IMG/VR virus record: IMGVR_UViG_3300025647_000017
Source of the DNA: an uncultured virus (IMG/VR IMGVR_UViG_3300025647_000017)
Taxonomy: Duplodnaviria > Heunggongvirae > Uroviricota > Caudoviricetes
DNA length: 64,000 nucleotides
Reading direction: 5' to 3' (one strand)
A program made the position numbers and the translations under genes. The notes under the pieces were generated by a model. That model searched no databases. It saw nothing but the letters and a program-made list of their open reading frames with translations, and was not told the origin of the DNA. Shown in pieces: positions 5,347 through 61,947 of the stretch. Each line of letters begins with the position of its first letter. Positions within the stretch are counted from its first letter, which is position 1.

Positions 5347-8096
5347 TTTTAGATTTAGATAAATATTTACCACAACGACATTATGGAGATATTGAAGCTA
5401 AAGGTTTCTATGATGTTGTTAATACAGAAGATGACGTTTGGTGTCTATGTACTATCACAGAAGATGATCAGGTACTATTATTTCATGATTACCCTGAATA
5501 TGATAATGTAGAGGTATATGATGCTGATGATAATAAAACTTATATCATACCACCGCGTGTAGGATCTCTTATAGATGGTGCTAGGTATTGGTATAAAATT
5601 GGCAGAAGTGGTGGCAAACTCTCAGTTCACAATTGTCAGACATACGATAAACCTTTAATTGAGAAGATTTGGCCTAAGTGTATTATACCTGCATCTTGTT
5701 GGGAGGATACTTATATACAATCAAAGGTGCAATGGTTCGACAGACCTTGTCCAAAAGGTGCCAAATCCGCTCATGGCTTAAAAGCCTATGGCATTAAGTT
5801 TGGTAATAAGAAGCCAGACATAGAAGATTGGACAATCATGGATGCGTATAAACTACACCGTATCGTAGAAGACTGTAAAATACAAAAGATGACTGCCTTA
5901 TTTTTAGATAAGGAAGCAGAAACCTTTAAAACTAAGTTTGGTATGGATTTTACAAAAGCTATTAATGAAGTAGAGAAACCTTATGCAACTATTGCGTTTG
6001 AACAAGAGTTACGTGGTGCTAAGGTTGATGTAGAACATATTAATAAATGTGTAGCTTGGTTAGATATTGAAACTGAACGTTTATCTTCTTACATAGAACC
6101 ATCTTTACCACCTACCTTGAAAAATAAGACAGGACGTGTTGGTAGGAATGAGATGGCTCTTTTATTACTAGGGAGGGATGACGTAGCTGATATTATTGAC
6201 ACTTATACAGGTGAGGTAGTTAAACCTTACTACAAACCTAGTACTAATTTCCACCGTATTGAAAAGCAAAAGTATTACTCAGGGTTTCATATATCATATG
6301 GAGATAGCCCTTCTTTCAAAAAGAAGAATGAACTTACAACGTGGATAAAAGATACGCATCCTGACACTAAAAGTAAAGAATGGGATATAGGTTTTGAGGA
6401 AAAAGAGACTCCCCTCTTAAACAAGAACACTTGTGAATATTTTGGTGTAGAGGAAACAGAAACTGATATTATCTCTGGTCCACATACACGTATTGAATGG
6501 AATATAACTAAACTTACCCAACATGAGAAGGTAAAAGGTTACCTGATAAAATCTGGTATTAAGTGGGCTGAAGTATGGAACATTAAAAAGGTAGACGGTT
6601 ACCCAGCTAGAGCAGAGGAAGATACTATTATCTACTACCCACCAAAAGCCCATCCTTCTATGCAGATAACGTATGAAGTTAAAAAGGGTGAGAACTTAGT
6701 ATCATCCCCTAAATTTGGGGATAAAGAATATGAGCAACTTGGTGATGATGCAGAGATGGGTAAGGATATTGCAAAATACAACACCTATATGCATAGACGT
6801 AGGTTTTTCTCTAATGTTAAAGACCCAGAAAACAAGGGTGTATTAGCTTATGTTAGAGAAGATGGTAGGGTTCCCTGTGGTTTAGGAAACTTCCTTACAT
6901 CTACAGGCCGTAGTAACCAACGGGTTATTGTTAATTTACCCTCTGAATCAAGTCTTTATGGTAAGGAGATGCGAGAAGCTATCATTGCAGATGAAGGTAA
7001 AATTCTAGTTGGTTGTGACCAAAAAAGCTCCCAACTTAGTATTGGAGCGTTTATAGCTAACAACCAAGATTACTACAATGCTGTAGCCACAGGGGTTGAG
7101 TTTGAAAATACAGAAGATGGTTCGCAAGTTTACCTTGGGACTTCAGCCCACTGTGTTAATGCCCGTAACTTTGGTTTAGTTTCTCAAGAAGAATGGACTA
7201 AAGCTGTATCTTCTCAAGATGAGGGGTTAATACACAGTATAGCCTTAAGACGTAAGAAGTCAAAAGGTCCAAGTTTTGGCGTTAACTAATATAGCGCATC
7301 CAACCTTAAACGGGGAAAACCTTACCATTAAGTTGAAGGTAACCTGCCGTGCTAAAGTGCCTAATTGTCACTAAAGCCTAACGACTAGATGTGTATGTAG
7401 AGAAGCATCGTAGAGCCAAGTGGTGGTATTTATACCTTAAATCGAAACGGGTTGGCTATTGCTTGCTAAAGTAATAGATGATATAGTCTCAACTTCTATG
7501 GAAACATAGAGATGCAAGTGATGTTGCTGGCTCAGTATAACGAACTGGGTTGAAGATAATGTATATTTGGTTGTAGTGGTAAAAAACTAGGTTTAATGTT
7601 AGATATACCCCCACAAGAAGGTAACGAGAAAAAGAATAACTTCTTAACTCGTATGGGTCTTGATAAAGTAATTGAATATGTTAAAAGGTGTTCTCAGCAA
7701 TTCAGTTACGGAGGGGGGTTCTTTATCCCTGTCTATGGTTACTGGCTATGGTGTCGTGGTGTAAACGTAGGGGTTAACTATTTTTGTCAAGGATTAGAAG
7801 CTATTATCCAGAAAAAGGCAGTTATAGCTTTTGATAAGATAATGGAAGCCAAGGGTTATAAAACTCACACAGGTTCTGTACTTCAGGTCCATGATGAGAT
7901 CCTTATAGAGACTTTACCTGAGTTAGCTGATGAAGTTGGTAGGATAATGTGTAATTGCTACACAGAAGCTGGTTCTGATATGTTAGCTTGGTATAAGGAG
8001 AATAAATGGGCGTACCCTGCAGGTGGTGAACCTAGTATAAGTGTAGATTTTAGTGGAGGTTATGCTAAAGGTCTCAACTATTATGCGTGTCATTAG
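5343..8096 (+). CDS. polA: Family A DNA polymerase, spliced: join(5343..7282,7562..8096), 824 aa
   Basis: Exonuclease DIE motif, TGR motif, motif A (GCDQKSSQL), motif B restored by splicing (RKKSKGPSFGVIFG), motif C (VHDE). Confidence 0.93.
7283..7561 (+). mobile_element. Group I intron in polA (279 nt, no ORF)
   Basis: P1 exon GCGU with GCGC (U-G); P10 AAUAUA with exon TATATT; P3 CCAACCU/GGGUUGG; P7 GACUA/UAGUC; P9 GAAA tetraloop; terminal G at 7561; frame restored. Confidence 0.93.
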
Positions 8097-8120
8097 TAAT
8101 TAAACAAGATTACCTCCCAA

Positions 8121-9287
8121 ATGGGAGGTGTCTTTATTGGGGGTTTTATGAGTTTTAACTTTAAAGTTGGAGACAAAGTTGCAAGTGTCTGTGGTAGTAT
8201 GAATGGTGCGCTGATATCAATAGACCACAGACATAATCGATGTAAGGTTTTATTTGATAACGGAAGGGAGAGGAACTACAGTAAAGCTGCAATAGAATCT
8301 GGAGATATAGATGATAAACCTTATCAAAAAATAAAAGCAGGGGATAAATTTAATACTAATAAATACGGGGTGGTTACAGTTAAAGATTACCTAAGTACTT
8401 ATAAGATTACTATAGAATTTAAAGATGGTGTTACTAGCTCCACAACAGCATCTAGTCTCAGATTAGGTAATGTTGGTCACCCTATGAGCGGCTTGTACAT
8501 TGGCTTTGAGTTTACTAACAGTGATGGTTGTACTGGTAAAGTTATTAGATTTAATTCACCCTACGATGTAGATGTAGAGTGGTTTGATGGTGTGGTAACT
8601 AAAGGGCATGCCGCAGCCCATATAAAGTTTGGAGGTGTTTACTACCCAAATTATAAATCTGTTTGTGGTGTCGGGTACTTTGGGATTGGAGATTATATTT
8701 CCGATAAGAGTGGTAAGACAGGTAATTATAATAAAAGAGTATATGGCTCATGGTGTAGGATGTTAGGTCGGTGCTACGATCCGAAAGAACAAATGAAACC
8801 TAAAGGTAGAGCTTATATTGGCGTTACTGTTTGCGAGGAATGGCACTGTTTTCAAAACTTTGGTAAGTGGGCAAGTGATAAGGAAGACAAATTTATTGTA
8901 GGTTTTGAGTTAGATAAGGATATGTTTGGTGATGGATTATCATATTCACCTGATAATTGCACATTACTCCCCGCCAGTATTAACAGTTTTCTCTCAGAAT
9001 GTGGCGCTACTAAAGTATCAGGACTACCAGATGGTGTAAATATAGTTAAGCCTAAGGGGGGTACAAACGCTACCGTGGGTTATATTGCTAGGTGTCACGT
9101 TGATAATGTAAGGCAATACCTAGGGTTCTATAAGACTCCAGAAGAAGCTGCAGAAGTATATAAGGTTGCCAAGGAAAGCGAAGCTCTTAGGTTAGCTGAC
9201 AAGTTTAAGTCGGTTCTCAGTACAGAAGAATATGATAAACTTGTTAATTTTACTTTATCAGATATACATAGAAAGAAGGATAAGTAA
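8121..9287 (+). CDS. Free-standing HNH-type homing endonuclease with N-terminal repeats and AP2-like C-terminus (probable start 8148)
   Basis: W..ML.RCY, VCEEW..FQNF, LDKD..YSPDNC motifs; YLGFYKTPEEA AP2-like end; directly downstream of polA. Confidence 0.8.
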   Translation: MGGVFIGGFMSFNFKVGDKVASVCGSMNGALISIDHRHNRCKVLFDNGRERNYSKAAIESGDIDDKPYQKIKAGDKFNTNKYGVVTVKDYLSTYKITIEFKDGVTSSTTASSLRLGNVGHPMSGLYIGFEFTNSDGCTGKVIRFNSPYDVDVEWFDGVVTKGHAAAHIKFGGVYYPNYKSVCGVGYFGIGDYISDKSGKTGNYNKRVYGSWCRMLGRCYDPKEQMKPKGRAYIGVTVCEEWHCFQNFGKWASDKEDKFIVGFELDKDMFGDGLSYSPDNCTLLPASINSFLSECGATKVSGLPDGVNIVKPKGGTNATVGYIARCHVDNVRQYLGFYKTPEEAAEVYKVAKESEALRLADKFKSVLSTEEYDKLVNFTLSDIHRKKDK

Positions 9288-9291
9288 CCCC

Positions 9292-9320
9292 TTGACACCT
9301 ACTCTCCCATACCCTATAAT
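9292..9320 (+). promoter_or_regulatory. Consensus sigma70 promoter overlapping a terminator hairpin
   Basis: TTGACA(9292-9297)-17 nt-TATAAT(9315-9320); AATCTCCGTA...TACGGAGATTTTT stem follows. Confidence 0.85.
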
Positions 9321-9353
9321 CTCCGTATCTTAATTGCTACGGAGATTTTTATT

Positions 9354-12300
9354 ATGAAACTATCACCTTCTGAACTCATATTAACTCTTGTAATATTATC
9401 AGTACTATTCTACACTGGAGTTACACGTTACCAATCTTCACTTGTACCTCCGCCTACATTGCCAAGTTGTACTGTGACTGATAACTTAGTCACTCTATAC
9501 AATAAAAATTACACCAATGCTAAATTAAAGTTGACATGTGGTGGTGAAGTGTTTAATATTGACGGATTGAATGTAGGAAGAATTGTGTATAAACAAAACC
9601 GTAGAGTTTTAGGTTTGAAACATGCACCAGATGCTAAATAACTGGAGATAATAATATGAAAATTAAAGATATCATTGCTAACTTGGATAAGTCTGAAGCT
9701 AATAGGGATGAGAATGTTAATTGGGATTTACAGAATATGATCTCTGATTTAAGTTTAGACTGTTGGGTGTATAGCCAAAATCAAGATGACTTACGTATGA
9801 AGTGTTACTGGTTGTCCGTTTGGACTTGTACAGATACCCATGTTGGGACAAGAGCTTACTTCTTGGATGATATGTTGGTTTGTATCTCACAACAAAACTC
9901 ACGTAAAGGTGGTGAAACCTTCGAGTGGGTTGATGAGATGGCTGTTACCGCCACAAGAAACTTCATATTTTCCTTACAGAAAGAAGAAGATGAATCTGAT
10001 GTGACCTATCTAGATTTAGAAGAGGAAGTTGGTGTAGGTTTTAACGTTAATTTTACTGGACAATTACACACAGATAAAGTAATCTACGAAGGAAGTAGGG
10101 CTGTTGTCTTAGAAGATAATGAATACACAGAGCTACCTTGTGGTAAGAAAGAAAATAACTTTCACACCATTAAGGTCACTAATGAATATGGCACTCGCCT
10201 TGTTGACATACAAAAATGTGTTGTCCCTTGGCATACTACAGATGGTTGGAGATAATATGACTAAACTAAAAGACGTACACACTGAACATTGTTGTATCGA
10301 TCATGGTTGTAAATATGGTAATGAAAACTGTACCGTAACTACTGGAAAAATTCAGCAGTCTTACTCTTGTATGGATTGTGAAGAAGAGTTGAAGCTGGAA
10401 TCCAATAATGAATTATTAAAACTAATCCAGCAGCACACTGAGTTGCTTGCAGATTCTGTAGCTCGACGTAGAGAGACTTCTGCTGGTAACAAGGCACTTC
10501 ATACCAAGATGTTAGAACTCTTGTCTGACGAAGACTGGGAAGGTGTGGAGGGTATGTTACGTGACTCTTGGTACCAGAAACCTTTAGATGGTGTTATATG
10601 TTGCCTGAATCCATCTGATATGGATGTTAAGGTTAAATTCTACAATACATGGAGTGGTTATGAAAACTAAAGTACTCTTACTTGGTTCTGGTAGTGAACC
10701 ATCTATGTCCCACAGTAGAATTATTGACACACTACAACATAGCCCTGAACTATTAATTATTTATATTAACCAAGATACTGTTGACACGATTAAAGGTTTA
10801 GATTATGATTGTGTCATCTTAGATGAACTCGTAGACTTAGGGTGTATTGAACAAGCCCGTGGTATTACCATTAAGAGTGATAATGTAAATGTTGGTACCA
10901 TAGGTAATCCTGATTGGTATTATGATCCTGCACAATTAGTTCAGTTTGATGATTGTATGGGTATTGCAAATAAAAATTTATCTGGTAAGATAGTCGACAC
11001 TAAACATAAGAAGCCATTTTATCAGACTGGTAGATGGTAATTTAATTAAGGAGAATATTATGGATATAACATTAACATATAATACAAACTACTTTCCATT
11101 TAGATGGACACTTAATGTGTGTAATGGATTGGGACTCCAAGTGGATTTTTCAGCTAAGCCAACAAAGAAACAAATACGTAATGTGGTTAATGCTGTAATC
11201 AAAGCTGACCATACTAGTTGGGGCAAGAAATACAGTATAGTTAAAGGTAAAATGATTTAAGCTAATAGAGGAGAGCCTTATGCAACATTATGAACAACCT
11301 TGGGCGGGAGGTACAGTATATAACTGTATTCAAAATTGCCTGCGTTATGTACAACAATCAAGCAATAATGCAATGACTACTACTATAAATGAAGTTACCA
11401 TCGTAGTCTACAAAGAGTCTTTCATTAGTGACCTTTGTGATAAGTATGATATGCAACGTAAGATCACTTATAAACAATATTAGGAGAATATTATGCATGA
11501 CAAATTTATCGTTACAGAATGCATGGGTGTTAAACAAGTTGGATTCAACGGTGCAATGGGAGTGTCTGTGTTGGATGTTGAAGAAATTGTCCATATGCTA
11601 AACGGTTTTAGTAACACTTGTATTAAATTGGAAGAACGCATCGCTGGTCAACTTAAGATGATAGATGTTGCTGGTAAAGAAATTGAACGTTTAGAGGATG
11701 ACCTAGATAGGATGTTCTCACAAGCTAACCCATATTAATATTATAAAGGTATTATCGATTAAGGGGTATAATATGTACAAAGATAAAAATGGTAACTACA
11801 TTTCGATCCACTCAGTAGTTAAGTATAATGGATATTACTACGCAGTTATGCAGATGGATAAATCTAATGGTAGGGAATTCTTTGTTGAGTTGAAGAATGG
11901 TTGTGTAATTTGCTGGGCTAAACCAGAATTGTTGGAGGTAATCAATTGATAGCTTATAAATTATTTAGGTTAACAAAAGATAATAAACTTGCACCTTTGT
12001 TCATTAACCGTAAACTACGTATACCTGTTGGAGTTTGGATGGAGGCTGAATTTCACCCAACAAAAGGGTTCTCTGAACGTCAGGGCTTCCACCTTTGCTT
12101 AACACCCTCAGCACCTCACTTGAAAGAAGTGTTAAAATCTGGTGAAGTTCGTGTATGGTGTCAAGTTGAGATTGAAGATTATAAATATCATGAACGTCCT
12201 GAATCTCAAGGTGGTATGTGGGTATTAGCACAGAAGATGAAGGTTATTAAACAATTAGACAAATATGGAGACTATTAAATGAACATTAGATTTTCACTAT

Positions 12301-14175: not shown

Positions 14176-14232
14176 TCAATATAGTTAGTTGTAGGTACTA
14201 TTATGTGTTATTTCATTCCCAGTTAGATGGGA

Positions 14233-23350: not shown

Positions 23351-23352
23351 TG

Positions 23353-23718: not shown

Positions 23719-24284
23719 TACGTTTTCCCTGTTTCTATAGCAAGTCCAGTAAGTTTGAACCCATCAACAACCGTTTTAGTACCAGTCTTAGGGTCAGTGG
23801 TGCCAGCTAAAGATGAACCTGTACCAGCACTAGGAGATACTGTGACAGTTGTTAATGTGTCAAGGGATGCCTTCATACCAAAATCTAATTGCTGTATTGA
23901 GAGGTTGACTGCAAGGCTATCCTTACCTTCCTTCATATAGGAAAAACTTGTTATAACACAATTATCAAACGAAGGAACCATCCTATCTTCAGTACCATAC
24001 AGAGTAAATACTACCACATCATCAATAACTTGATTGACTAGAGTAATATAATCTTCTGGTGCAGGAGAGTCATTCCTCACTTTAGTTTGGTTAATTGTGC
24101 CAACTAAGTTTATACTAGGTAAATCTGGGTGGTAATGATCACTAACCTTGACACCAGACTGCAGAGTATGTTGAGCCACTGATGCTGAACGTGTAACTTC
24201 CATAGAAGATGTAACGTCCAACACCAATACAGTAGTGCCGTCCTTGGCTAGGAGGAACACTACATTTTTTAATAAACTAGCCAT
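23718..24284 (-). CDS. Tail tube initiator or Dit-like protein
   Basis: H.LQSG..VSDH motif; directly downstream of tape measure. Confidence 0.7.
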   Translation of the reverse strand: MASLLKNVVFLLAKDGTTVLVLDVTSSMEVTRSASVAQHTLQSGVKVSDHYHPDLPSINLVGTINQTKVRNDSPAPEDYITLVNQVIDDVVVFTLYGTEDRMVPSFDNCVITSFSYMKEGKDSLAVNLSIQQLDFGMKASLDTLTTVTVSPSAGTGSSLAGTTDPKTGTKTVVDGFKLTGLAIETGKT

Positions 24285-27200
24285 TAGTTTTGTACCTCCC
24301 TTATTTTAGAGTCAACCATATCTTTCACTGCACCACTATTTGAAATAGTAACACCCATCTTCTCTGCATCTGCACCAATAGTGATGTTAACTGCATTTGA
24401 ACTAGATGAACTTCCAAACCACGATGGTGATTTATTTGTTGCATCAAACCAAGTTGGTAACCCTAATCCTTGGTCTAACTTGTCAGCGAATAAGAATAGG
24501 TTTTTAAAACTATCATAGAATGGTGTGAGTGGTGAATTAGATAATGTTTTATCCATGCCAGACATGTAACCTGATCCTAGAGTAAAACCGCTGTTACCTT
24601 TTTTCTTCTCACGAGGGTCAAATAATACACCAATTTTATCTTGGTTAAATAAGTTGATTAATTCCTCACCCCAGAATGCAGCCATTTTGATACTATCTGC
24701 AATAGCTAAAGCTGCGGCTACAACAGGACTCATTCTGCCTAATAAACCTGTGAACATAGGTAAGAACCTACTCATAGTTTTTAAGCTGATAGCCCAGTAT
24801 CCAGCAAATGCTGCCATTGGTACTAAGAAGCTACTGTCACCCATTAGTTTAGTTAAGTCATCAAGTAGTACACCAACAGCTTTAAGTGTAGGAGTGACGG
24901 CTTTTAGACCTGCAGAGAGGATCTTAAACACTGAACCAATGATACGACCTAGTGATACCCATAAAGGTTTAAGGTCAACCACAGACTTTGCAGTCTCGTT
25001 AAATAGTTCAGTCAAACCTTCGGCAAATCCAGACTTAAATATCAAGTCACCAGCTTCTTGGAATGATAAACCTAAACGGTTCATTGCCACACGGTTAGAT
25101 AACATGGCTTTGTCTAAACCACCATTAGCACGAGCAGCCTCAGACATACGTTTAGCAAAGAATGGTAATACCTTTTCAGATATCAAACCACCAGTTTGCT
25201 GTAGTGCCATCATAGATGCAACTGAACCATCTAAGGTTAAACCTGCGTCTTTTGCTGCCAGAGCCATTTGTAATATGGCATTTGGTAATACTTCCCCCAT
25301 TTGGAGTTTTCATTTATATACCTAAATTTTCACTTAGGATTAGACTATATCTTAACCCTGACGGGTCTGTATTTTCGAGTAAGATTCTACCCTACATCCT
25401 ATCGGATTAGTCTTTTGAGGTTATACCCTTTTTGCGTTGGCTCTTAGATATGTATTTACCTACCCACCAAGTATAGTCTTTGCTAATATTTTCAAAAGAA
25501 CATCTATATTTTATATTATTAACAGACTTCTTGTTTATCAGATCAGGAATGTCATATAAATCACAAATAAATTTACAACCAAAACCATATTCAAGTAGGT
25601 CACATATTTGTTTTGCTATTATAACAGTCATATTATCCGTAGGTTCTGGTTGTAAATTGTAGTCTTTTGTAAACCAAGAATACAAAACTCCAGTACGTAA
25701 TTTACTTATCTTATTTTTACTTACACCAGTAATAGTGTGTATTTCTAAGGTAGATTTACCACCCTCTATAAGTTTACAGATATCTTCCATAACACTAAGG
25801 GCTAGATCCCTTTTATGGTCACTGGCATGTTCAGGCATATTATCTACATAATGTTTTGAATTCTCTTTGTAGGTTATCCATTCAAGATTGTTCACATTGC
25901 AGTTACTTTTGTCCAAGTCTTTATGATTGACTATCAACCCTTTTTGGTAGGTATCTAATAAGAATGCTTTTGCAACTAAAGTATGACAATTTCTGTACAT
26001 ATTCTTGCCGTTTACACCTCTTAAATTAACACCCCAATAACCACCATCATAAATTCTTCTACTTAGATATCTGTTACTTTTATAACTATACACATTCCCA
26101 TTTTTTATCTACTGAATAGTCTGGGAATTCTTCTATCACTTTTAGCATTATAATCTCCTTCAATGGAGATCAGGTATATTCCTAACGGATTACCTAATCT
26201 TGACACATTTTTACTTTACCAAACACATTACTGTTTGCCCTAACCTATATTACTATGGCTAGTTAGTAGTGTCAAGCTCTAAAGGCTTTCCCGTTTTAAC
26301 ACATTTTATTTAGACACATTTCTGTGAATAGAGCCAAAACTTGAGTTAAATCAATAACTTAGCTCTTCTGCTGAAACTACCCCTTTCAATTCTGTTAATA
26401 TTAGTCGTTAATTAATATATACCTTTTAGTATCTCTATATTACTATAGATGTTCAGACTATATCTTCACTATTTTACAGTGCATTACGTTTCGATACCAC
26501 TTAGTACCTACATCCTATCGGATTAGTCGTTGAGGGCCACCTAGATTATTCTAGACTCCCTGCTGATCACCCAAGTTGGGCTTCCCAGCATATATAATGT
26601 TTTACATGAGCTAAGGTTAACTCATCCTATACACCCTGTATTACTACAAGGATTAGACTATATCTTAACCTTCAACTTAATGTTAAGGTTATTTACGCTT
26701 CGAGGACAATTTATTATCACCCCCTACACTCTTACGAGTTAGTCTTTACACGTTCCTCTTATATGAGGCTTCGCTCGGTATTGTCCTACTTCCTTTTAGG
26801 AGTTTCACCGAATTCATAAATTTAATTATTCATCATATTTCTATGAAGCCAAACAATGATTTATTTGTTGCAAAGCGTTTGTCTATGGACTATATCTTAA
26901 TCCTAAAAAAGGATTCCTTATTTTCGATTAAACTGTATAATCTACACCCTAAAGGGTTAGTCTCTGAAGGTTCTTACTTTAGTAAGGTTCCCTGCTGATT
27001 GTCTCTAATGAAATATCCCAGCAATTAAAAAGGTTTTACATTTAATATTACTATTAAAAGGAGCCACAAACCATTTAGCTCTTGTACTTTCTTCTGCACT
27101 TAGCCCTAGAAGGGTTGACATTTCTGAAATTCCTACGAAAGAGGCTTTCACATCTTCCAGACTCATCTTCCCTCGTGCAGATAACATCTTGGCAAAGTTC

Positions 27201-28021
27201 TTACCACTTGATGCTAATCCTAACCCCAGTCTGTATGCTTCGTCCCTGACGAACTTGAAGTTGTCACCTGCTTCCTTGGAGTTTGTACTTACTGCCAACA
27301 TTGTATTACTTACAGATTCGAAATCCTGTCCTACTCTAGTAATACCTACACCCAACCCTGCTACAGCGAACGCTGATAACATGTTACCTGCAAACTGTTT
27401 ACTGGATGCTGACATACGTTGCATAAGGAAGTTCTGCTTGTGCATAGAACGTTCTGATTGCCTCATAACACGGAGTCTTTCCCTCTCCATAGCAATGAGT
27501 AACCTAACTTCTTTTGCAGTCCTAGCCTTAGCTACAGACTCTCTCAATGCAGCTTGAGCTAGACGTTCTTGCTCATTGGTAGCAGCTTTAAGGTTTAACC
27601 CTGATCTTCCAAAAGTTTCTTTGGCTGAACTAAGGTTGGTTACTCGTCTACTTTCCATCCTAGCTTGTCTATTTAACTCTGCTTCTCTAGCTTTAACATG
27701 AGCATTATTACTAGGTAAGCTTGTTGGTATTCCAGCTTTAGCTCTTTCTACTGCAGCTTTTTTCTCAAACTTTATGTTCTGTTTAATTGCTGCAATATGT
27801 GCTGCACTTAAATCCTTTTCTCGTTTAACTTTATTATTGTATTCTTTATTTAAATGCTTCTCACGTTCCTTATGGTGAGCATTCATCATCTTCTGATTAG
27901 AACGAGTAGAGGCTTCTTGTTTCTTACCAAAATTCCCCATCTTCTTCTCGAAGTCTTGTAACTTTTTAAGTGCGGTATCAAACCCTACCTCCACCGTATA
28001 CTTTACAATTTCCTCTGCCAT
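24284..28021 (-). CDS. Tape measure protein, spliced from 5 exons: 28021..27077, 26882..26863, 26626..26620, 26386..26361, 25310..24284 (674 aa)
   Basis: Splicing gives ...EESTRA|TNALQQM|MS|KGVVSAEEL|KLQMGEVLP..., the conserved tape-measure domain motif; total 2025 nt in frame; follows the tail chaperones. Confidence 0.92.
25311..26360 (-). mobile_element. Group I intron TMP-i4 (1050 nt) with HNH ORF in P6
   Basis: P1 GAGCU/GGCUC; P10 AGUUUU/AAAACU; extended P5; P7 GACUA/UAGUC; P9 GAAA; terminal G at 25311. Confidence 0.92.
25407..26148 (-). pseudogene. Intron-encoded NUMOD4-HNH homing endonuclease with a +1 frameshift in an A6 run
   Basis: AAGGAG RBS and ATG at 26148 give MLKVIEEFPDYSVDK; one extra A at 26101-26106 breaks continuity with NGNVYSYKS...H.LVA..F...VNHKD..K.NC..NNLEW. 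Confidence 0.75.
26387..26619 (-). mobile_element. Group I intron TMP-i3 (233 nt, no ORF)
   Basis: P1 AUGAGU/GCUCAU; P10 CCUU/AAGG; UGCUGG..UCAGCA P4; P7; P9 GUAA; begins with in-frame UAA. Confidence 0.92.
26627..26862 (-). mobile_element. Group I intron TMP-i2 (236 nt, no ORF)
   Basis: P1 CAAAU/GUUUG; P10 UCAUU/GAUGA; UUCGGUG..ACCGAG P4; P7; P2 GAAA and P9 GUAA tetraloops. Confidence 0.92.
26883..27076 (-). mobile_element. Group I intron TMP-i1 (194 nt, no ORF, no P9)
   Basis: P1 GAGCU/GGCUC; P10 GUUUGU/ACAAAC; AAUUGCUGGGA and AAUCAGCAGG core; ends AAGAUAUAGUCCAUAG. Confidence 0.88.
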
Positions 28022-31906: not shown

Positions 31907-32410
31907 TTATGGAATGATAATTGCTGCTCCATTTATAGAGTATGCTAGGTGGCTGACCAAACCCCCTGTCCAGATAAGTGGATTATTTGGACGGACTCCA
32001 GCTTTAGCTTTAAGGTATTGGGTGAAATCTGAGTTCTCATGCAATTTTGAAATGTCGCCAAAAGAGTTCCTTGTTACATCTACATAAGATTTTGCTGTCA
32101 TACTTAAAACTTTATCTACACTTATAGGACTCTTTGATTTAATATTAGAAAAGTATAATTTTAAATTATTCTTAAACTCTAAGTTGTTTCTTATAGGAGA
32201 AAATGTGGAAAACTCTAAGTTTAAAACTGGCCTTGCTGGTAAATTTATTTTGGTACTCCCATATGATAGTATTGCAAAAATATTAGGGTAAGATAATCCA
32301 GAGTTGTGTTTACCTTGGGAGTCCCAGTACCCTACCTCAAACTTCTTCTTATGTAACTCTTTGAATCTTTTGACTAAATTAGGGATATTATTCTTTTTAA
32401 GTACCAACAT
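31907..32410 (-). CDS. Neck or tail completion protein
   Basis: YG....LPARP and PLIWTG.L motifs. Confidence 0.65.
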   Translation of the reverse strand: MLVLKKNNIPNLVKRFKELHKKKFEVGYWDSQGKHNSGLSYPNIFAILSYGSTKINLPARPVLNLEFSTFSPIRNNLEFKNNLKLYFSNIKSKSPISVDKVLSMTAKSYVDVTRNSFGDISKLHENSDFTQYLKAKAGVRPNNPLIWTGGLVSHLAYSINGAAIIIP

Positions 32411-33758
32411 TGATTGCTCCTTGTTTAATTGAAGTTAAAGGCACTTCTTCTAGTCCACTGATAGCTACCAACTCATTCAATATATGTAAACAATCTGTGT
32501 CAAAGGTTTCTATTGTCCATTTTGATAGGTAATGGTAGAAGCCCCTTTCAGTGAGTTCTCTATGTATTTCTTGTTCTACCTCATAGATATTTTTATGGGT
32601 ACTTGTCATGACACGTAGTATCTCTATCTCATCTATTTTATGTTTTGATTTTATAAGTAAACCATTTTTATGTTGCAATCTATCTTTTATATCAAAACTC
32701 CTACCTACCTTTATATACCTACCCTTTTTAAACAATATACAATAAAGGTAATCTTTCTCTTCTGACCTGTGCGGGTAGTAACCATTCATATACCCCTCAA
32801 CCTTCTGTCGTATTTTGTGGCATGTAGTGCAACGACTTCTACTATGAATAAAACTATTTATGCAGGTAACGCAGGTATGTCCTTTATTACATTTCCACTT
32901 AAATTTTGAATTATTCGTAATACTACTTACATTTTTTCCAATCCACCCAATAAATGTTAATTCTTCTTCATCACATGTCTTTTTGATCAGGTATTCTCTT
33001 TGTTTTAATGTATATCTTGTTGAGTTACTACATCTACAAGATTTTAACCCACATTTTAGGCTACCAACAAAAGATTCAAATATTCCTGTACAAAGCCCAT
33101 TTTTAACATACTCGTCATTAGAACATATAGTACAGGTGTAGTTCCAATAAGCGGATAATCCTCTTTTATCTACTTTACTGCTACGCCAAAACTTATACTG
33201 GTCTCCAAAACCAGCCTTACGGAAATCATCTATGTGTATATTATCGTCTAATAGATTTAATTTCCTAATTTTTTCAGTCTTTATTGCAGGGTCTTCATTT
33301 CCAGAAAAGAAATTATCTATAGATGTGGAGTTCCATGTGTTTTGTGTTGCAGTATTAAACAGGGATAAGTGCGTCTTAACACCTTTCCACTCTCCATGAA
33401 AACCTAAGAATTCATACCCTCTTTTATTACATTCTCGCTTAATTCTAATTTCATATTGATATTTACTCCATCTTGTATTATACCCGCAACCACAAGTAAC
33501 TCTACCACTAATAATATGGCCTTTGGTATCTAATATAGTCCCTACAGGCCATAACTCAGTATCTTGTGAACATACACTGCAGATTGTTTCAAAATATATA
33601 CTTCTGCCCTTTCGTCCCCATACACCTACTACAGTAATCACACCACCTTTAGGTGTAGGAAACTGACTACCTATAAACTCCTGTTGATTCTTTGTCAACT
33701 CCACACTATTATCCTTTATCCTGATTCTATACTTCATTATACCAGCTTTACCTTCCAT
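32397..33758 (-). CDS. Free-standing homing endonuclease: Zn-ribbon repeats plus a C-terminal GIY-YIG/T5orf172-like domain
   Basis: Two C..CS.D...CGC/CRC repeats; YLYCILF..YIKVGRS....RL and ETF motifs; probable start 33737. Confidence 0.75.
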   Translation of the reverse strand: MEGKAGIMKYRIRIKDNSVELTKNQQEFIGSQFPTPKGGVITVVGVWGRKGRSIYFETICSVCSQDTELWPVGTILDTKGHIISGRVTCGCGYNTRWSKYQYEIRIKRECNKRGYEFLGFHGEWKGVKTHLSLFNTATQNTWNSTSIDNFFSGNEDPAIKTEKIRKLNLLDDNIHIDDFRKAGFGDQYKFWRSSKVDKRGLSAYWNYTCTICSNDEYVKNGLCTGIFESFVGSLKCGLKSCRCSNSTRYTLKQREYLIKKTCDEEELTFIGWIGKNVSSITNNSKFKWKCNKGHTCVTCINSFIHSRSRCTTCHKIRQKVEGYMNGYYPHRSEEKDYLYCILFKKGRYIKVGRSFDIKDRLQHKNGLLIKSKHKIDEIEILRVMTSTHKNIYEVEQEIHRELTERGFYHYLSKWTIETFDTDCLHILNELVAISGLEEVPLTSIKQGAINVGT

Positions 33759-56032: not shown

Positions 56033-56482
56033 TTATGGTAACAACTTCAAATTAGAACGTAAATTATTATTCTGTCTCTGCAGCACTTCTTCTGGTACTT
56101 CGTGTACATTACCACTGTCATGTCTGTTTTCTACGATAAGACTAATAACATCATAGTTGTATTGTTCTGCCAATTCAATATAAGGTTTGATTTCCTTTTC
56201 AGTGGTAGAAGTGTTATGGACAATGATGACACCAATACCCAACTCCATAAAGTCATCAACTATACCTTTACACCACTTATGAGCTGCAGCTAAATTCTCT
56301 ACTTTGAAATTGTAATTACCTTCCTCGTCATAATGAAAGTCATCTGCTGCCACAGCGTAACAACCTTTACTTCCAATATCATTGTCAATAAGATCTTGCA
56401 GCCAATCAGCCAAAGTTGTCTTACCTGCGCCACTACAACCTCTAAGTATAATAAGTTTATTTTTCATTAAAATAGTCCTCAA
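56033..56482 (-). CDS. P-loop kinase (polynucleotide kinase-like, AAA_33)
   Basis: LRGCSGAGKTT, ADD, HNT and HEVP motifs. Confidence 0.8.
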   Translation of the reverse strand: MRTILMKNKLIILRGCSGAGKTTLADWLQDLIDNDIGSKGCYAVAADDFHYDEEGNYNFKVENLAAAHKWCKGIVDDFMELGIGVIIVHNTSTTEKEIKPYIELAEQYNYDVISLIVENRHDSGNVHEVPEEVLQRQNNNLRSNLKLLP

Positions 56483-57347
56483 TTAATTGTCTACGTTCAT
56501 TCTCACTAAAAGAATAATAAACTTCTTTAGTGTAACCGTCAAGTAAATACTGGTGGAAATCATAAAATTCTTCATCGATTTGTTTCTTGAATTCAGTAGG
56601 ATTATCAAATGCTAAATCAATACGTTTACGTCCCATGCGGAGGAAAGCTTTCTTACTCAAATAATGAGGTGACTTTAGTTTACATAACACAACTCCAGTT
56701 TTGGCACACAATATCATATAACCTTCTTTATTAGTTTCAGGTATATCTTTGAATTTCATTAACCCAACAGAAGGTCTATGACAATGTAATAAACGTGCCA
56801 TATGATCTAACACCCATTCACTGGACAATTCTCCAGAGTTGGTAGATCTAATACCAATTAAATAAGCTCCCTCATCTTCATATACAATATGTGGGTCTGA
56901 GTTATCACAAATTTCAAACATATGTGTATACCCAGTAAGCATCATATCTGTTGCTAAAGGTTCAATCCACTTACGGGCTAAGTCTGCATATTCAGAGTCA
57001 ATTGTACCAGTGGTAGAGATAATCAATCCATACTTACGTGTCATAGTAGCACACCCTAGGAAACCATTAATTTTGGTAGGTATTTCTACCATACGTTCAG
57101 GATCAATAGTAACTCCATTCTCACCAAGGTTAAATACTTTCTTAAATGGGTGTACAATAATATTATCATCTTCATCTACGACTAAGCCACGGCACTCTAG
57201 TAGACGTTCATCTAAGTGCCACAGGTTATCCCAGAATACTTTCTTAGTGTATTTTAGGATCGACAAACCTTTATATTTACCTTCAGTATAAGTTTTCTTC
57301 TTAACCAAACCTTGTTCAATTAAATCATCCACATTAAATTTAGCCAT
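56457..57347 (-). CDS. RNA ligase, T4 Rnl1-like
   Basis: ECRGL, KKVFN, KINGF (motif I), FE, EGY and KLKS..Y motifs. Confidence 0.8.
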   Translation of the reverse strand: MAKFNVDDLIEQGLVKKKTYTEGKYKGLSILKYTKKVFWDNLWHLDERLLECRGLVVDEDDNIIVHPFKKVFNLGENGVTIDPERMVEIPTKINGFLGCATMTRKYGLIISTTGTIDSEYADLARKWIEPLATDMMLTGYTHMFEICDNSDPHIVYEDEGAYLIGIRSTNSGELSSEWVLDHMARLLHCHRPSVGLMKFKDIPETNKEGYMILCAKTGVVLCKLKSPHYLSKKAFLRMGRKRIDLAFDNPTEFKKQIDEEFYDFHQYLLDGYTKEVYYSFSENERRQLIEDYFNEK

Positions 57348-57909
57348 TATTTCTTCTCCCTACAACTTCAATTTGTTTCAACTCAGATACCACATCTTCA
57401 AGGTTTAATATTTTACCGTGAGCATCCCAACCTACATCCATAGTACGACCTTCAATACCAGAAGGAGAATCATGCAAGTGTCCGTGAAGCGCTATGCTAC
57501 CATGATCACACTCGTTCCAATGCTTGATTGGGTAGTGCATCATACAAAGTTTAACACCATTAAATCTAAATTCCAAATAATCATAGAAAGGTACTCCCAT
57601 AGCTCCTAGAACCTTCCTACAATGGTTTCCAGCAACCCAAGTTATATTGCCATTAAGTTGAGATATGATTGCCTCAGTAGCTTCTCTACCTTTAAATGAG
57701 AAGTCACCTAAGCTAATAACCTCATCATCAACACCAACTATAGAGTTCCAATGCTCAATCAATGCTGCATTCATATCATCAACATTAGACCAAGGTCGAG
57801 TATCAGGACAGAATCGTAAGACCCCTGTATGGTAGAAATGTAAATCGCTGGTGATAAAGTATCTGGTGTCAGTGTTAGATGTATTAATTTTCTGTCCAAA
57901 TTTAATCAC
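57340..57909 (-). CDS. Calcineurin-like metallophosphoesterase
   Basis: SDLH, LGD, GNH, HGHLH and DVG motifs. Confidence 0.88.
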   Translation of the reverse strand: MIKFGQKINTSNTDTRYFITSDLHFYHTGVLRFCPDTRPWSNVDDMNAALIEHWNSIVGVDDEVISLGDFSFKGREATEAIISQLNGNITWVAGNHCRKVLGAMGVPFYDYLEFRFNGVKLCMMHYPIKHWNECDHGSIALHGHLHDSPSGIEGRTMDVGWDAHGKILNLEDVVSELKQIEVVGRRNNG

Positions 57910-57941
57910 TTTGTAAAGCCTCCTATTTAAATTAGACGATA

Positions 57942-57970
57942 AATATACAATACTTAAATCTACCTGTCAA
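57942..57970 (-). promoter_or_regulatory. sigma70 promoter
   Basis: TTGACA-17 nt-TATATT on the minus strand. Confidence 0.65.
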
Positions 57971-58020
57971 CCTATAAAATAAAACCCACACAAATTAATA
58001 CATGGGCTTGATGGTTTAGT

Positions 58021-59127
58021 CTACTTATTCAGTTCAGTAATATACCATGTACGTGCTTTAGTTGATAGGTATTTTCCCACTTCCTTCATTGTAAGGTTAT
58101 TACTTTCAAGGACATCACCTTCTTCTTTATTAATGTCTTTACTTACCCAACTAAGGAATGCACCAATTAACTTCTGGTCTTTACCTACCTCAGCTAAGCC
58201 TTGTTGTAGTCTATTCTCTGTGGCGGAATACTCTACAAACTCTTGAATTGAATTTAACTTTTCTACATTGACTGAAGCTACAGATTTAACTTTAGACACA
58301 GAATGTTTTTCACCTTTAGTTTTAAACCAATTACCACTGTCCCAGCAATGTTCATCACTAACTGGAGTCCATACTAACCCCTCTCCAAGGACTTGTGGTT
58401 TACCTGCGGCGCTCATTAGGTTAAGTTGTTTTGACACAGGACACTCAGCCTCACAAGCTTCAGTGTAACCTACTAGAGTGTTCTGGACAAACATAGGATT
58501 CTGGAAATCAATAGTGACCTTCTTTGTAGGAAAATCTATGATAGCGTAGAAACCGTCAGCTTGGGTATCATTATTAGTAAGCCCATAAGTTAGTTCTACT
58601 GGCAACCAACCTTGTTTCAGTGTTTGGTCAGTATCCCCAGCCTTGATACCAAAAATAAATAAAGACTTCTTAGGCAAGAACGAGATACCAACCGAACTCT
58701 GAATACCACTTCCACACCATTCACCTGAAATCTTAAGAGGGTATAACTCAACACCATTGTAAGCTTTGGCAAAAGTCTTTGCTCTTTCTATAATAGTGTA
58801 CAGAGAATCTAACCTACGAACCATTGTTTGAGCGAACTCAGCATTATCTGAAAGTAAAGTAAATCCTCCATTTTTAATATAACCTAGTAAATTATTCTTA
58901 CTATGGAACGAAATAACCCCGTCTTCATCAACTACAATACTAGCATTAGTCCCATGTAACTTCACAGTACCAATGTATTCAATAGTAGGTGCAATAGCAA
59001 GTTCATTTAAGATAACATTACCATCTGCATCAAACCCATTAAATTTAGCTTGTTGTTGAATATTCTTAACCACATTACGGAATTGACCAGTAGAGTGGAA
59101 TGAGTAGTTTGTTGGTTGTTGTGACAT
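58021..59127 (-). CDS. RNA ligase, Rnl2-like
   Basis: KLHGTN (motif I), GEW.G, EGLVW and FKTK motifs. Confidence 0.82.
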   Translation of the reverse strand: MSQQPTNYSFHSTGQFRNVVKNIQQQAKFNGFDADGNVILNELAIAPTIEYIGTVKLHGTNASIVVDEDGVISFHSKNNLLGYIKNGGFTLLSDNAEFAQTMVRRLDSLYTIIERAKTFAKAYNGVELYPLKISGEWCGSGIQSSVGISFLPKKSLFIFGIKAGDTDQTLKQGWLPVELTYGLTNNDTQADGFYAIIDFPTKKVTIDFQNPMFVQNTLVGYTEACEAECPVSKQLNLMSAAGKPQVLGEGLVWTPVSDEHCWDSGNWFKTKGEKHSVSKVKSVASVNVEKLNSIQEFVEYSATENRLQQGLAEVGKDQKLIGAFLSWVSKDINKEEGDVLESNNLTMKEVGKYLSTKARTWYITELNK

Positions 59128-59350: not shown

Positions 59351-61947
59351 TTACTTGATGCGGCTTCTGTGGGCAGCCAATGCCGTGGGGGAGGAGATTG
59401 TTGGTAGTGGGTAGGCTTTATGCAATTTAGTCTTTTGCAGAAAAGCCATACAATCGCCAGCGCAGTCAACCCAGTCATCCTTGATCGATGCTGTAGATGG
59501 ACTTCCATCAAAAGCTTCTAACTCTTTGTAGAAAGCCTCTAAAGTGGCTTTATTTTCAAAAGAACTTTCAACTATATGTACTAACCCATTCTGACATGCA
59601 GAAGAGAATATAGAGAAACGCTTTACTTTGCCACCTTTTACGTTACCAACTTCAGAACCTCTTACATGAAAACCTTCATTTGTAAGCATCTTAGCTAAGT
59701 CTTCAAACTGCGCCTTACCAGCGCCACTCTCTTTAGGCAGTAATATATAAGTATCTTCTCCATCCCATTGAGCTTGTTGCAACATCCATGTATTTCTCTC
59801 GCCAAAGCGTTTCCTAAACCTACCAACTACATCAGTTTTAGGGTCTTTTATCTCTGGGTGATAATTAGCAACTATAAAATATAGGCCGTCCTTTCTAATC
59901 ATACGTACTGATGCAGAATAATCTGGATATCTATTTTTGTCACTAGGTTCAGAATGAGCTAAATCCCATGCTCTACATGCTAAACCTCCAACTGGCTCAT
60001 TATCTACTTTGTGTAACCACTCCCTCTGGAATAGGTTACTCCCTTCTGGTCTTGCTAGCCAATTCGATTTGTTACAAAATTGTTAAATCTTGCACCTTAC
60101 GGTCTCTATGTCACCATAGAAGTTCAGACTATATCTTTACCTATTAAGGTATCTAACATTTCCACCTACTAGAAGTAAGCGTACACCATTTCTGGTTAGT
60201 CGTTGCACTACACAATTATATATTTTGCATAGCTCAGTATTGTCTCAGAGAGATATCCACTGAATTAAATAGATTTATAAAGACGGCAATTGTTCACCGT
60301 CTAGTAGTCTTGCCCTGTTAATCTTAGTCTGTGCCTTAAGTGCAGACAGATACTTCGGATTTTGTTTGATTAGGGCTGGATTCTTAACTCCTTGTTTTAT
60401 AACAAGGAGTTTGGACTATATCTTCACCTCTAAAGGTGTTCTATTTTCGAGTATAAGCACCCTACACCCTAACGGGTTAGTCTCTGAAGGTGTTAACCTA
60501 TGGTTAACGTCCCTGCTGATTGTCTTTAGTTTATAAAGAGTTCCCAGCAATTAAAAGAATTTTCACCATGAAATTACTAACATGGGCGACAATCATCTAT
60601 CGAATATATTTCCCCCAATAAAACAAAACGTCATTGGAGGGACGTACACTGTCTTATCTTCAATTGGATTATACACATAACATAGGTCTGGGTATTGCTC
60701 TGCCAATGTTTCAGGATCATCTGCGAACACTGGGGTATCATCAACTACCAAGAAATATCTTATATGCCCTAATTTACTCTCATCAAACACTCCAGTTTCA
60801 TCTAAATAATACTCTACCCATTGAAAAACCCAACTATCTGCATCTGGGTTGGTAGTGGCTAACATAAATGAATCACTGTCTGCAGCAGAACGCATACGTC
60901 CCATTAAATATAAAAACTGCGAACAAGTGAAGTGAGTTAGTTCATCGAATCCGACAAAAGAATATTGTAAACCTTGCTTGTAACCTATTGATTACTATGG
61001 ACTATATCACTGTCTACTTAGTAGACACTCTATTTTCGAGATTGTATTAATCCCTACACCCTAACGGGTTAGTCTCTGAAGGTGTTAACCTAGGGTTAAC
61101 GTCCCTGCTGATTGGTCACTACGTGACTATCCCAGCAATTAAAAGAGTTATTCGAAACACATTACTGTATTAAGCCACCAAATTTTAATGGTTACCTTCC
61201 GCGTCACTTTCATGCTCAAGGTGTGTAAATTTAAGGTTGCCTCCTTTATTACCCTCTGCACCACTGAACATGATTTCCATGTCCTTTTCTCTCACCCTTG
61301 TTCCTAGGGGTTGGTATAATTTCTTTGCCTCACTAAACAGACCACCTGCTGCTTTCAATGGAGGGGAAGTCCTACGGAACATTACCCCCTCAAAGTTGGG
61401 GTCGTTGTGAGCGTAATACCCTGCCTTCAATAAGAGTAACCTACTTTTGCCAGATCCTGCCAAACTGGACTATTATTCTTTATGTCACCATAAAGCTTAG
61501 ATCATATCTTCCACATATAAGTGGCTTTCCATTTCGAGTATAAATACCCTACACCTCTTCAGGTTGATCGTTGCACACAGTATAATTAAATACCTTCGCT
61601 CAGTATTGTCTCGTAGAGATATCCACTGAATTAGAAAAGTTGATTATCGAGGTGCCACAGGATTTACTAGCACCTCCGTAGATCATTACATCTACCTTCA
61701 TTTGCGCTGCTAACGCTTGTTTCACTACCTTACGTGGATCGTTACACCACTCTATGCATTACTGCACAAGTTGAGACTATATCTTATTACTCTATTGTTT
61801 CGAGTTCACTTGAACTCTACATCCTTTCGGATTAGTCGTTACACGTTTTTAATTCGCTAGGTATTATCCTATAAGGGACCTTCACCTAATTAAATAGATT
61901 TATAGTAGGCAAACATTACCTACTTGCGGGGATAATTCATTACTCAT
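59351..61947 (-). CDS. terL: Terminase large subunit, spliced from 6 exons: 61947..61918, 61722..61669, 61460..61188, 60976..60599, 60382..60296, 60064..59351 (511 aa)
   Basis: Splicing restores SPQVG|KQ, Walker A YGGA|AGSGKS, H|QGLQYSFVGFDELTHF Walker B, TTNP, D|NPAL, RLLDG|NW, RAWDLA, PDYSA and DDWVD; 1536 nt in frame. Confidence 0.93.
60065..60295 (-). mobile_element. Group I intron terL-i5 (231 nt, no ORF)
   Basis: P1 GACGGU/GCCGUC; P10 CAAUU/AAUUG; P7 GACUA/UAGUC; P9 GUGA; terminal G at 60065. Confidence 0.92.
60383..60598 (-). mobile_element. Group I intron terL-i4 (216 nt, no ORF)
   Basis: P1 CGAU/GUCG; P10 GAUU/AAUC; UUGCUGG..UCAGCAG core; P7; terminal G at 60383. Confidence 0.92.
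60977..61187 (-). mobile_element. Group I intron terL-i3 (211 nt, no ORF)
   Basis: P1 CCAU/GUGG; P10 UUG/CAA; begins with UAA; core nearly identical to i4; terminal G at 60977. Confidence 0.92.
61461..61668 (-). mobile_element. Group I intron terL-i2 (208 nt, no ORF), inside Walker A
   Basis: P1 GAGGUGCU/GGCACCUC; P10 UCCUGU/GCAGGA; variant P7 GAUCA/UGAUC; P9 GUGA. Confidence 0.92.
61723..61917 (-). mobile_element. Group I intron terL-i1 (195 nt, no ORF, no P2 or P8)
   Basis: P1 GUAGGU/GCCUAC; P10 UGUUU/AAACA; P3 UCUAUU/AAUAGA; P7; P9 GUAA; terminal G at 61723. Confidence 0.9.

Follow-up and report, generated by a model that had tools for sequence, protein, structure and literature searches.

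Group I introns are well documented in the tape measure protein (TMP) and terminase genes of phages (PMC2504315; PMC10448857), and the closest described cases come from ICP1, from two Shewanella phages and from Bacillus prophages. According to the parts of Barth, Dunham and Seed (2023, PMC10448857) on which we draw, the TMP transcript of ICP1 is divided into four exons by three introns, as seen by RNA-seq, RT-PCR and Sanger sequencing, and its middle intron usually carries an HNH-3 gene; the large terminase gene (terL) of this phage is spliced from two exons and has a T5orf172 gene beside exon 1, the T5orf172 family being treated there as homing endonucleases, and collaborative homing is discussed. 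Introns in terL have also been noted in phages 1/4 and 1/40 (PMC8541194, in the excerpt used), which are Shewanella phages from Baltic Sea ice. In prophages of the Bacillus cereus group, several sites in TMP and large terminase genes (TMP-IVS1/2/3, term-IVS1/2) are occupied, mostly without an endonuclease gene, one terminase intron shares homology with a TMP intron, and homologous cores are adapted to different sites through P1 (Tourasse and Kolsto, 2008, PMC2504315, in the sections cited). Here we analyze a stretch of 64,000 nucleotides from an uncultured virus (IMG/VR IMGVR_UViG_3300025647_000017), hereafter the window, which is an ICP1/Shewanella-1/40-like myophage assembled from a freshwater metagenome, and in which the family A DNA polymerase gene (polA), the TMP gene and terL are interrupted by one, four and five sequences, respectively, that are in all likelihood group I introns.

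Our analysis confirms that these ten sequences are true phage-type group I introns, which have probably accumulated in three essential genes as selfish homing elements. Each intron would be removed by a two-step, guanosine-started reaction, in which a guide near the 5' end of the intron would pair with the last 4-8 bases of the preceding exon, closed by a U.G pair (P1), and also with the first 4-7 bases of the following exon (P10), the terminal G setting the 3' site. The first-pass annotation of this DNA had counted nine splicing events for two morphogenesis proteins, TMP and TerL, which holds as the DNA reads, and one more would be needed for the polymerase. The same annotation had contrasted this load with an expectation of one to three introns per phage gene, mostly in genes of DNA metabolism. 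This premise was overstated, since TMP and terminase introns are well documented and, in the part of the ICP1 report cited above, a three-intron TMP with tiny exons splices. The window is an extreme example, the densest that we met, of a documented phenomenon, and its novelty is one of degree rather than of a new kind of element. In the literature searched, whose coverage ends short of subscription journals, no phage gene with more than three group I introns was found to be described, and the published genome of Pseudoalteromonas phage H101 already has five in its TMP gene by hand reading.

The likeness to ICP1, which belongs to the same clade and whose TMP exon 5 region is 42% identical to that of the window (tblastn), extends to the arrangement of the introns. 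The two phages have several group I introns in the same conserved motif of TMP, with tiny exons left between them, and in both terL is split, with a T5orf172 gene adjoining terL exon 1. Furthermore, the HNH_3 intron of ICP1 lies at the site of the fourth TMP intron of the window (TMP-i4), after GAAGA(G/A)CT, and the two share the opening AAGTTATTG. The differences are as follows. First, ICP1 has three TMP introns and one terL intron, four in its whole genome, whereas the window has four and five, plus one in polA, a count that refers to these 64 kb and not to a complete phage genome. Second, three TMP sites of the window (s1, s2 and s3, defined below) are empty in ICP1, and two sites of ICP1 (s4 and s6) are empty in the window. 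Third, the HNH gene is frameshifted in the window. Compared with the window, H101 has an uninterrupted polA and five TMP introns (hand reading) rather than four.

Other phages provide more distant parallels. The orf142 gene of Staphylococcus phage Twort is said to contain three group I introns, with exon skipping and self-splicing in vitro. It reportedly resembles the present case in that a single structural gene, in a virulent myophage of large size, has several introns without an open reading frame (ORF) and a short exon between two of them, and differs from it in phage family, host and gene, in its three introns as against five and four here, and in the 7 nt of the smallest exon here. In T4, the td, nrdB and nrdD (sunY) introns have P7.1/P7.2-type hairpins, lie in conserved parts of essential genes and home by means of intron-borne or free-standing endonucleases; unlike those of the window, they occur one per gene, in nucleotide-metabolism genes, and are larger and ORF-bearing. 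We take the J8/7-P7 core sequence AAGAUAUAGUC to be common to the window introns and these three T4 introns (IA2). The Bacillus prophages, as described in the sections of PMC2504315 cited, differ in their Gram-positive hosts, in being temperate and in having at most three TMP sites, which are not packed within about 80 nt; moreover, their intron subclasses, IA1 and IA2, were assigned from drawn structures, whereas the subgroup of the window introns is judged from core likeness only.

To locate the introns we used the covariance model Rfam RF00028 (Intron_gpI; curated gathering score, 50 bits), scanning the whole window at curated thresholds, the surroundings of the three genes in local permissive scans, and the whole window again at E <= 1. 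At curated thresholds six of the ten introns are matched (53.1-82.6 bits), and the other four are recovered in the local scans with E values from 1.1e-10 to 0.0014. Each of the ten places is thus matched by RF00028, which has no match elsewhere in the window, and no eleventh intron was found in the 64 kb at E <= 1, the 11 matches obtained being the ten introns and one unrelated small RNA (sRNA). The RF00028 matches end at P9, short of the actual 3' ends of the introns, and the junction borders were worked out by hand from the sequence, three-frame translation (terL) and relatives. This independent derivation gave 279 nt for the polA intron, 194, 236, 233 and 1050 nt for those of TMP, and 195, 208, 211, 216 and 231 nt for those of terL, reproducing exactly the sizes and borders of the first-pass annotation; together, the introns span about 55 kb (7283-61917). 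Their removal leaves frames of 824, 674 and 511 aa, again as had been predicted, which are colinear with uninterrupted homologues, and all ten junctions are colinear and ungapped in the comparison with intron-less relatives. Both this comparison and a search with RF00028 had been proposed with the original prediction, which the analysis confirms.

The splice signals agree with these borders. Each of the ten introns follows an exon-terminal U that pairs with a G of a guide lying no more than 26 bases into the intron (P1, 4-8 bp). Guide bases immediately upstream pair with the beginning of the following exon (P10, 4-7 bp), and G is the final base of every intron. The U.G-closed P1, the P10 match and the terminal G had been noticed at first pass. 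The guide pairs with its own junction over a total of 8-15 bp (mean 10.8), compared with a mean of 4.94 and a maximum of 9 in 90 mismatched intron/junction pairs, 7 of which reach 8. For the nine ORF-less introns, RNAalifold gives 25 consensus core pairs, 17 of them with compensatory changes on both sides. The P7 pairing reported earlier was confirmed, GACUA/UAGUC being found in eight of these nine introns and the compensatory variant GAUCA/UGAUC in terL-i2. P3-P8 is present in the Rfam alignment of every intron, as is an insert of 30-50 nt, made of two hairpins, after P7, the first of which was recovered with covariation by RNAalifold. By their likeness to phage IA-type introns, which have extra hairpins between P7 and P3', the introns are IA-like.

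That each guide sequence fits its own flanks bears on whether repeated intron cores could have been stitched into the wrong genes by the metagenome assembler, an origin to which we assign practically no chance. It could appeal to two joints in contigs of a second sample (X3), 26469->26655 and 25258->26433, which lie off the intron borders. However, contigs of that same sample are identical to the window over 25193-27706, the five terL introns recur, scoring identically, in an IMG/VR contig from another sample (L015), and these sites also carry introns in cultured relatives. The two joints, being off the borders, were discounted; they look like repeat-driven contig joins.

In polA, the only one of the three genes on the plus strand, exon 1 (5343..7282, from the ORF list and sequence) ends within a Val codon (gt|t) and is followed by an ORF-less intron of 279 nt (7283..7561; RF00028 45.6 bits, E 4.7e-10; P1 4 bp, P10 6 bp) with a 50-nt tail past P9, and by exon 2 (7562..8096), which on its own matches Pfam DNA_pol_A with 30.9 bits. 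The 3' splice site is fixed, because a TAA at 7557-7559 forces its position. The spliced polymerase of 824 aa is colinear with the uninterrupted polymerase of H101 (613/824, 74%), and KKSKGPSFGVIFGCSGKKLGLML, which is unbroken in H101, is identical across the junction. In the full-length H101 protein, DNA_pol_A scores 65.2 bits over residues 633-778, spanning the junction, and the intron sits in motif B of the polymerase. The nearest record (G001), a 24.5-kb fragment, repeats the polA intron only.

In terL, on the minus strand, five ORF-less introns separate six exons, the first five of which were read from sequence and translation. Exon 1 (61918..61947) has only ten codons (MSNELSPQVG), and 1/40 reads PQVGKQSLAA contiguously there. 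After terL-i1 (61723..61917, 195 nt; 48.8 bits; P1 7 bp, P10 5 bp) comes exon 2 (61669..61722, 18 codons), which stops within Walker A (..MIYGGA), a motif that terL-i2 (61461..61668, 208 nt; 43.5 bits; P1 8 bp, P10 7 bp) divides as GGA|AGSGKS. There follow exon 3 (61188..61460, 91 codons), terL-i3 (60977..61187, 211 nt; 53.1 bits), exon 4 (60599..60976, 126 codons), which includes Walker B (VGFDEL), terL-i4 (60383..60598, 216 nt; 74.9 bits), exon 5 (60296..60382, 29 codons), terL-i5 (60065..60295, 231 nt; 69.4 bits; P1 7 bp, P10 5 bp) and exon 6 (59354..60064), which encodes the nuclease domain (Pfam Terminase_6C) and is 79% identical to 1/40 and 46-55% to other phages. In the spliced TerL of 511 aa the junctions follow residues 10, 28, 119, 245 and 274, and the insertions fall in Walker A, in the stretch before Walker B, in the IFDNPAL motif and in the LLDGNW motif. 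Residues 28-511 align without a break with the TerL of two Vibrio phages, vB_CoeS_P1 (312/490, 64%) and PWH3a-P1 (302/487, 62%), with the N-terminal 26 residues matching at 81-85%. With terL-i2 removed, the spliced length agrees with the Vibrio phage TerL on both sides of an intein-like insert that these carry; an alternative terL-i2 of 199 nt, which adds three residues (SSL), was ruled out by this colinearity.

The insert in the Vibrio phage proteins is an observation in its own right. About 145 aa long, it lies in the Walker A loop of TerL in PWH3a-P1 (L006 1235-3205) and vB_CoeS_P1 (L007 1241-3214), two codons from the terL-i2 site, opens with Cys (GGSAG|CLDRDTE..) and ends in ..ITGN|SGKS, as a mini-intein might. 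Pfam matched no intein family in the PWH3a-P1 insert, which is intein-like by its borders alone.

The TMP gene, also on the minus strand, is the most densely interrupted, with four introns crowded into about 80 coding bases. Exon 1 (27077..28021, 315 codons; ORF list, sequence and spliced alignment) is followed by TMP-i1 (26883..27076, 194 nt, ORF-less; 58.9 bits; P1 5 bp, P10 6 bp), which is almost without P9 and has five bases from P7 to its terminal G. Spliced alignment then places exon 2 (26863..26882), whose 20 nt are common to phages 1/40 and 1/4, TMP-i2 (26627..26862, 236 nt, ORF-less; 82.6 bits; P1 5 bp, P10 5 bp), exon 3 of only 7 nt (26620..26626, GATGAGT), TMP-i3 (26387..26619, 233 nt, ORF-less; 58.4 bits; P1 6 bp, P10 4 bp, offset by 1 nt), exon 4 of 26 nt (26361..26386), TMP-i4 (25311..26360, 1050 nt; P1 6 bp, P10 6 bp), which contains an HNH_3 gene, and exon 5 (24284..25310; also from sequence), 48% identical (tblastn) to a 'hypothetical protein' of 1/40 encoded downstream of the HNH gene. 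TMP-i4, the ORF-bearing intron, has the lowest RF00028 score (25.3 bits), only its 3' part being aligned, with an E value of 0.0014 in a 3.5-kb scan and of 0.025 over the whole window.

The 7-nt exon is supported by pairing and by alleles that lack one neighbour or the other. GATGAGT pairs twice, forming P10 with TMP-i2 (GAUGA) and P1 with TMP-i3 (AUGAGU). On its left border, a DNA contig of X8 joins 26863 to 26626, skipping exactly TMP-i2 (26627-26862), and on its right border phage 1/40 has GATGAGTAAAGG contiguous, with TMP-i3 absent; a second X8 DNA contig omits exactly the 194 nt of TMP-i1. The spliced TMP of 674 aa is 52% identical (223/429) to that of Vibrio phage 424E50-1, with NALQQMMSKGVVSAEELKLQMGEVLPNAI identical to 424E50-1 across all four junctions. 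The accepted borders yield TNALQQMMSKGVVSAEELKLQMGEVLPNA, and an example of a predicted junction peptide is TRATNALQQMMSKGVV. Bounding TMP-i1 to TMP-i3 instead by the ends of the Rfam matches (201, 229 and 187 nt, with exons of 13 and 14 nt) gives LCNKLYRMS and then a stop, compared with TNALQQMMS as in the homologue, and was rejected. The 424E50-1 protein matches TMP_3 (73.5 bits) and the NCBIfam tape-measure domain TIGR02675 (residues 382-436), both directly over the intron cluster; the separate TMP exons of the window matched no family in Pfam or NCBIfam.

Such failure of separate exons in family searches is a warning for annotation, as pipelines split them into separate genes. Public annotations of the relatives indeed enter the exons as separate genes, either 'hypothetical proteins' or several 'terminase' genes, which might be taken to mean that the interruptions are retained, the phage being defective or decaying, or that the proteins are made in pieces. 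We consider this very improbable. Exons of 7, 20 and 26 nt cannot be separate proteins, ten of ten junctions restore conserved motifs in frame, and the structure of the intron RNA is kept with compensatory changes. Moreover, the plaque-forming isolates 1/4, 1/40, H101 and ICP1 carry like interruptions, and those of ICP1 are spliced, according to the part of PMC10448857 cited.

The shared 7-nt exon also suggests a more speculative reading of the TMP cluster, one that we hold to be possible though rather unlikely, namely, that its four introns, with exons of 20, 7 and 26 nt between them, form a composite homing cassette driven by one endonuclease gene, are no longer independent elements, and include two interdependent ribozymes that share 7 nt. 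As the same 7 nt serve as P10 of TMP-i2 and P1 of TMP-i3, such a cassette would require a fixed splicing order or co-operation, and it would provide a natural system of interdependent ribozymes with a built-in check on the output of a tail protein. Under the same reading, the 194- and 195-nt introns, one of them nearly devoid of P9, would count among nature's smallest self-splicing group I ribozymes. Irrespective of the cassette, neighbouring ribozymes that share a 7-nt exon are a compact natural test bed for splicing order and exon skipping, all within some 900 nt of transcript.

Two further observations concern the surroundings of TMP. First, in a 126.6-kb contig of X7, 274 other letters stand in place of the 39 bases around exon 4 (26343-26381), and a fifth TMP intron, at another site, may account for them. 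Second, upstream of TMP on the minus strand (28042-28823), overlapping frames of 192 aa (with a Phage_TAC_15 match) and 120 aa look like the usual tail-assembly-chaperone frameshift pair.

Mobility of the introns would be expected to depend on endonucleases, of which the window offers one within an intron and two free-standing candidates. The HNH homing-endonuclease gene of TMP-i4 (25407..26148, minus strand; Pfam HNH_3, 33 bits) has a surplus A in the run at 26101-26106, which splits it into a 20-codon N-terminal frame (26086-26148) and then a 228-codon frame (25407-26111). A letter is missing at 26101 in the related 126.6-kb contig of X7, where the two frames are thereby joined again, while X3 agrees with the window. 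The count of nine ORF-less introns made at first pass therefore stands, with the correction that the sole intron ORF is frameshifted, so that no intron carries an intact endonuclease gene as the DNA reads. It is probably a decaying homing-endonuclease gene, and decay of such a gene once its intron is fixed accords with the life cycle that is usual for these elements. Of the free-standing genes, both on the minus strand, one has a T5orf172 domain, typical of a homing-endonuclease family (61940..63409; Pfam T5orf172, 30.8 bits), and its end overlaps the terL start codon, reaching 8 nt into terL exon 1. The other, a putative homing endonuclease gene upstream of the neck and tail genes (32397..33758), combines four CapR repeats (168.8 bits) with a T5orf172 domain (21.1 bits).

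We propose that the introns would have accumulated, as selfish homing elements, in those parts of essential genes whose nucleotide sequence is most conserved, the conserved target in TMP being the tape-measure motif TIGR02675 and that in the polymerase being motif B. Transfer between co-infecting relatives may have been driven by the HNH gene of TMP-i4, now frameshifted, together with the free-standing T5orf172 genes, and the ORF-less introns would be either losers of an endonuclease gene or hitch-hikers copied through co-conversion. With intervening TMP exons of only 7-26 nt, several introns would usually be carried along when one cut is repaired. We infer this homing route from the distribution of the introns and the genes beside them.

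For this distribution we compared Shewanella phages 1/40 and 1/4, the nearest cultured DNA matches (82-83% over parts), with H101, the more distantly related ICP1, Vibrio phages and the IMG/VR contigs L013 and L015. The TMP loci of ICP1, H101 and 1/4 were read by hand and are less certain, the spliced-alignment script having invented micro-exons or merged introns there. At E <= 0.001, RF00028 matches number seven in H101, six each in 1/40 and 1/4, four in ICP1 and two in PWH3a-P1. Phage 1/40 shares terL-i2, terL-i5, TMP-i1, TMP-i2 and TMP-i4 with the window at identical sites, with a 1043-nt intron at the TMP-i4 site, and lacks terL-i1, terL-i3, terL-i4 and TMP-i3; its terL has three introns, the extra one bearing an HNH gene and lying after ..GFDEL (Walker B), a site that is empty in the window. 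L013, 95% identical in exon 6, is without terL-i3 and terL-i4, has the terL-i5 site occupied, and contains an ORF-less intron within the Phe codon of VGFDEL. Accordingly, terL-i3 and terL-i4 are absent from both relatives with terL DNA there (1/40 and L013), and terL-i1 is absent from 1/40, the only relative with DNA at its site.

In TMP, phage 1/4 shares TMP-i1 and TMP-i2, and TMP-i3 is absent from 1/40, 1/4, ICP1 and H101. By site, s1 (after AGAGCT) is occupied in the window, 1/40 and 1/4; s2 (after CAA(C)AAAT / CAGAT) in these three and in H101; s3 (after GATGAGT) in the window only; s4 (after GCT, the Ala codon that precedes EEL) in 1/4, ICP1 and H101; s5 (after GAAGAGCT) in the window (TMP-i4), 1/40, ICP1 (the middle intron) and H101; s6 (after ATGGGT) in 1/4 and ICP1; and two more, s5b and s7, in H101. 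The H101 gene (L012 2400-5100, record 7900-10600) has five RF00028 matches in a row, which on hand reading are five introns separated by exons of 25, 8, 11 and 32 nt, and the small exons of ICP1 TMP, likewise read by hand (L010), are of 8 and 16 nt. Across the clade there are eight occupied TMP sites within about 100 nt and seven terL sites, and this map of presence and absence is well suited to the study of homing, co-conversion and endonuclease turnover. In the third TMP intron of 1/4 (L003 3440-3160), our reading, which keeps a U ahead of the 5' site and a G as last intron base, gives SAELKLQMG where SAEELKLQMG is expected, one residue short, either by a real deletion or by an unusual splice site.

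Near relatives thus differ in occupancy at most of the sites, a pattern for which selfish homing elements account better than an adaptive device would. The latter would hold that the introns shield conserved targets from rival homing endonucleases or DNA-targeting defences, or gate late genes through splicing, along the lines of roles suggested at first pass. Once an intron is inserted, the sequence recognized by any endonuclease that cuts the empty site is inevitably lost, the introns are placed exactly in the most conserved nucleotide stretches, and eight TMP sites within about 100 nt would resemble repeated attack and escape. However, uninterrupted homologues of these genes are common, close relatives thrive with other subsets of introns or with none at each site, and the results here do not separate a benefit from purely selfish accumulation. 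We regard an adaptive load as unlikely.

Where the introns came from is a related question, and the first-pass annotation had proposed that an ORF-less family spread within this genome. A single architecture and subfamilies that cross genes agree with this: terL-i3 and terL-i4 form the closest pair of ORF-less introns (76%), TMP-i1 is 69-70% identical to both, and a TMP intron of 1/4 is 82.6% identical to terL introns of the window. Since pairwise identity among the ORF-less introns is only 48-76%, there was no recent burst inside this genome, and the proposal is only partly supported. We read these identities as signs of a related intron pool that may be swapped among co-infecting relatives and re-targeted through guide sequences.

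The same identities could be invoked for multiplication at the RNA level, by reverse splicing at a matching mRNA site, reverse transcription and recombination, with no need of endonuclease homing. The 69-76% identity of the terL-i3, terL-i4 and TMP-i1 cores, despite different genes and guides, the likeness of the 1/4 TMP intron to the terL introns of the window, and target recognition by 4-8 bases only would suit such a route. Against it, the Pfam scan of the window contains no reverse transcriptase, the identities leave no recent copies, endonuclease genes lie in or beside the affected genes, and a change of site by P1 adaptation has been described, in the sections of PMC2504315 cited, for homing-type introns of Bacillus prophages. 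Spread through RNA is improbable on this evidence.

Several observations nonetheless weigh against the introns being ten functional group I introns that accumulated by homing. First, four of the ten (terL-i1, polA, terL-i2 and TMP-i4, with 48.8, 45.6, 43.5 and 25.3 bits) are below the gathering score. Second, P1 has only 4 bp in polA, terL-i3 and terL-i4, P10 has only 4 bp in terL-i3 and terL-i4, and P9 is nearly absent in TMP-i1 and terL-i3, and therefore some of these introns may splice poorly or need a protein helper. Third, splicing in this phage is deduced from its DNA, because no RNA run is among the sequencing runs that match it, a point that also favours retained interruptions; that the ten introns are removed in vivo is what the junctions and RNA structures would predict. 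Fourth, the X8 joints that support the TMP borders come from short contigs with 30-nt sides at a likeness threshold of 85%, which makes them good though imperfect evidence. Fifth, the sole intron-borne endonuclease gene is frameshifted, and the T5orf172 genes are only candidate drivers of homing. Finally, X8 alleles with TMP-i1 and without TMP-i2, and the reverse, indicate that neighbours 20 nt apart did not always move together, and therefore co-conversion is not obligatory and the idea is weakened.

Beyond the introns, the window is a mosaic, its polymerase being nearest to H101 (74% aa) and the last exons of terL and TMP nearest to 1/40 (79% and 48% aa, respectively). Just downstream of terL on the minus strand (56033-59127), three genes in a row look like an RNA-repair set, one being for a kinase-like protein (AAA_33) and two for RNA ligases, of which one is of the T4 Rnl1 type. 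The one unrelated sRNA match, to the 3' part of Atu_C9, a Rhizobiales sRNA model (14143-14239, minus strand; 29.1 bits with a cut-off of 40), lies after an 821-aa BNR-repeat gene and is probably merely a terminator hairpin. Lastly, DNA of this phage also occurs in freshwater, aquifer, sediment and runoff metagenomes.

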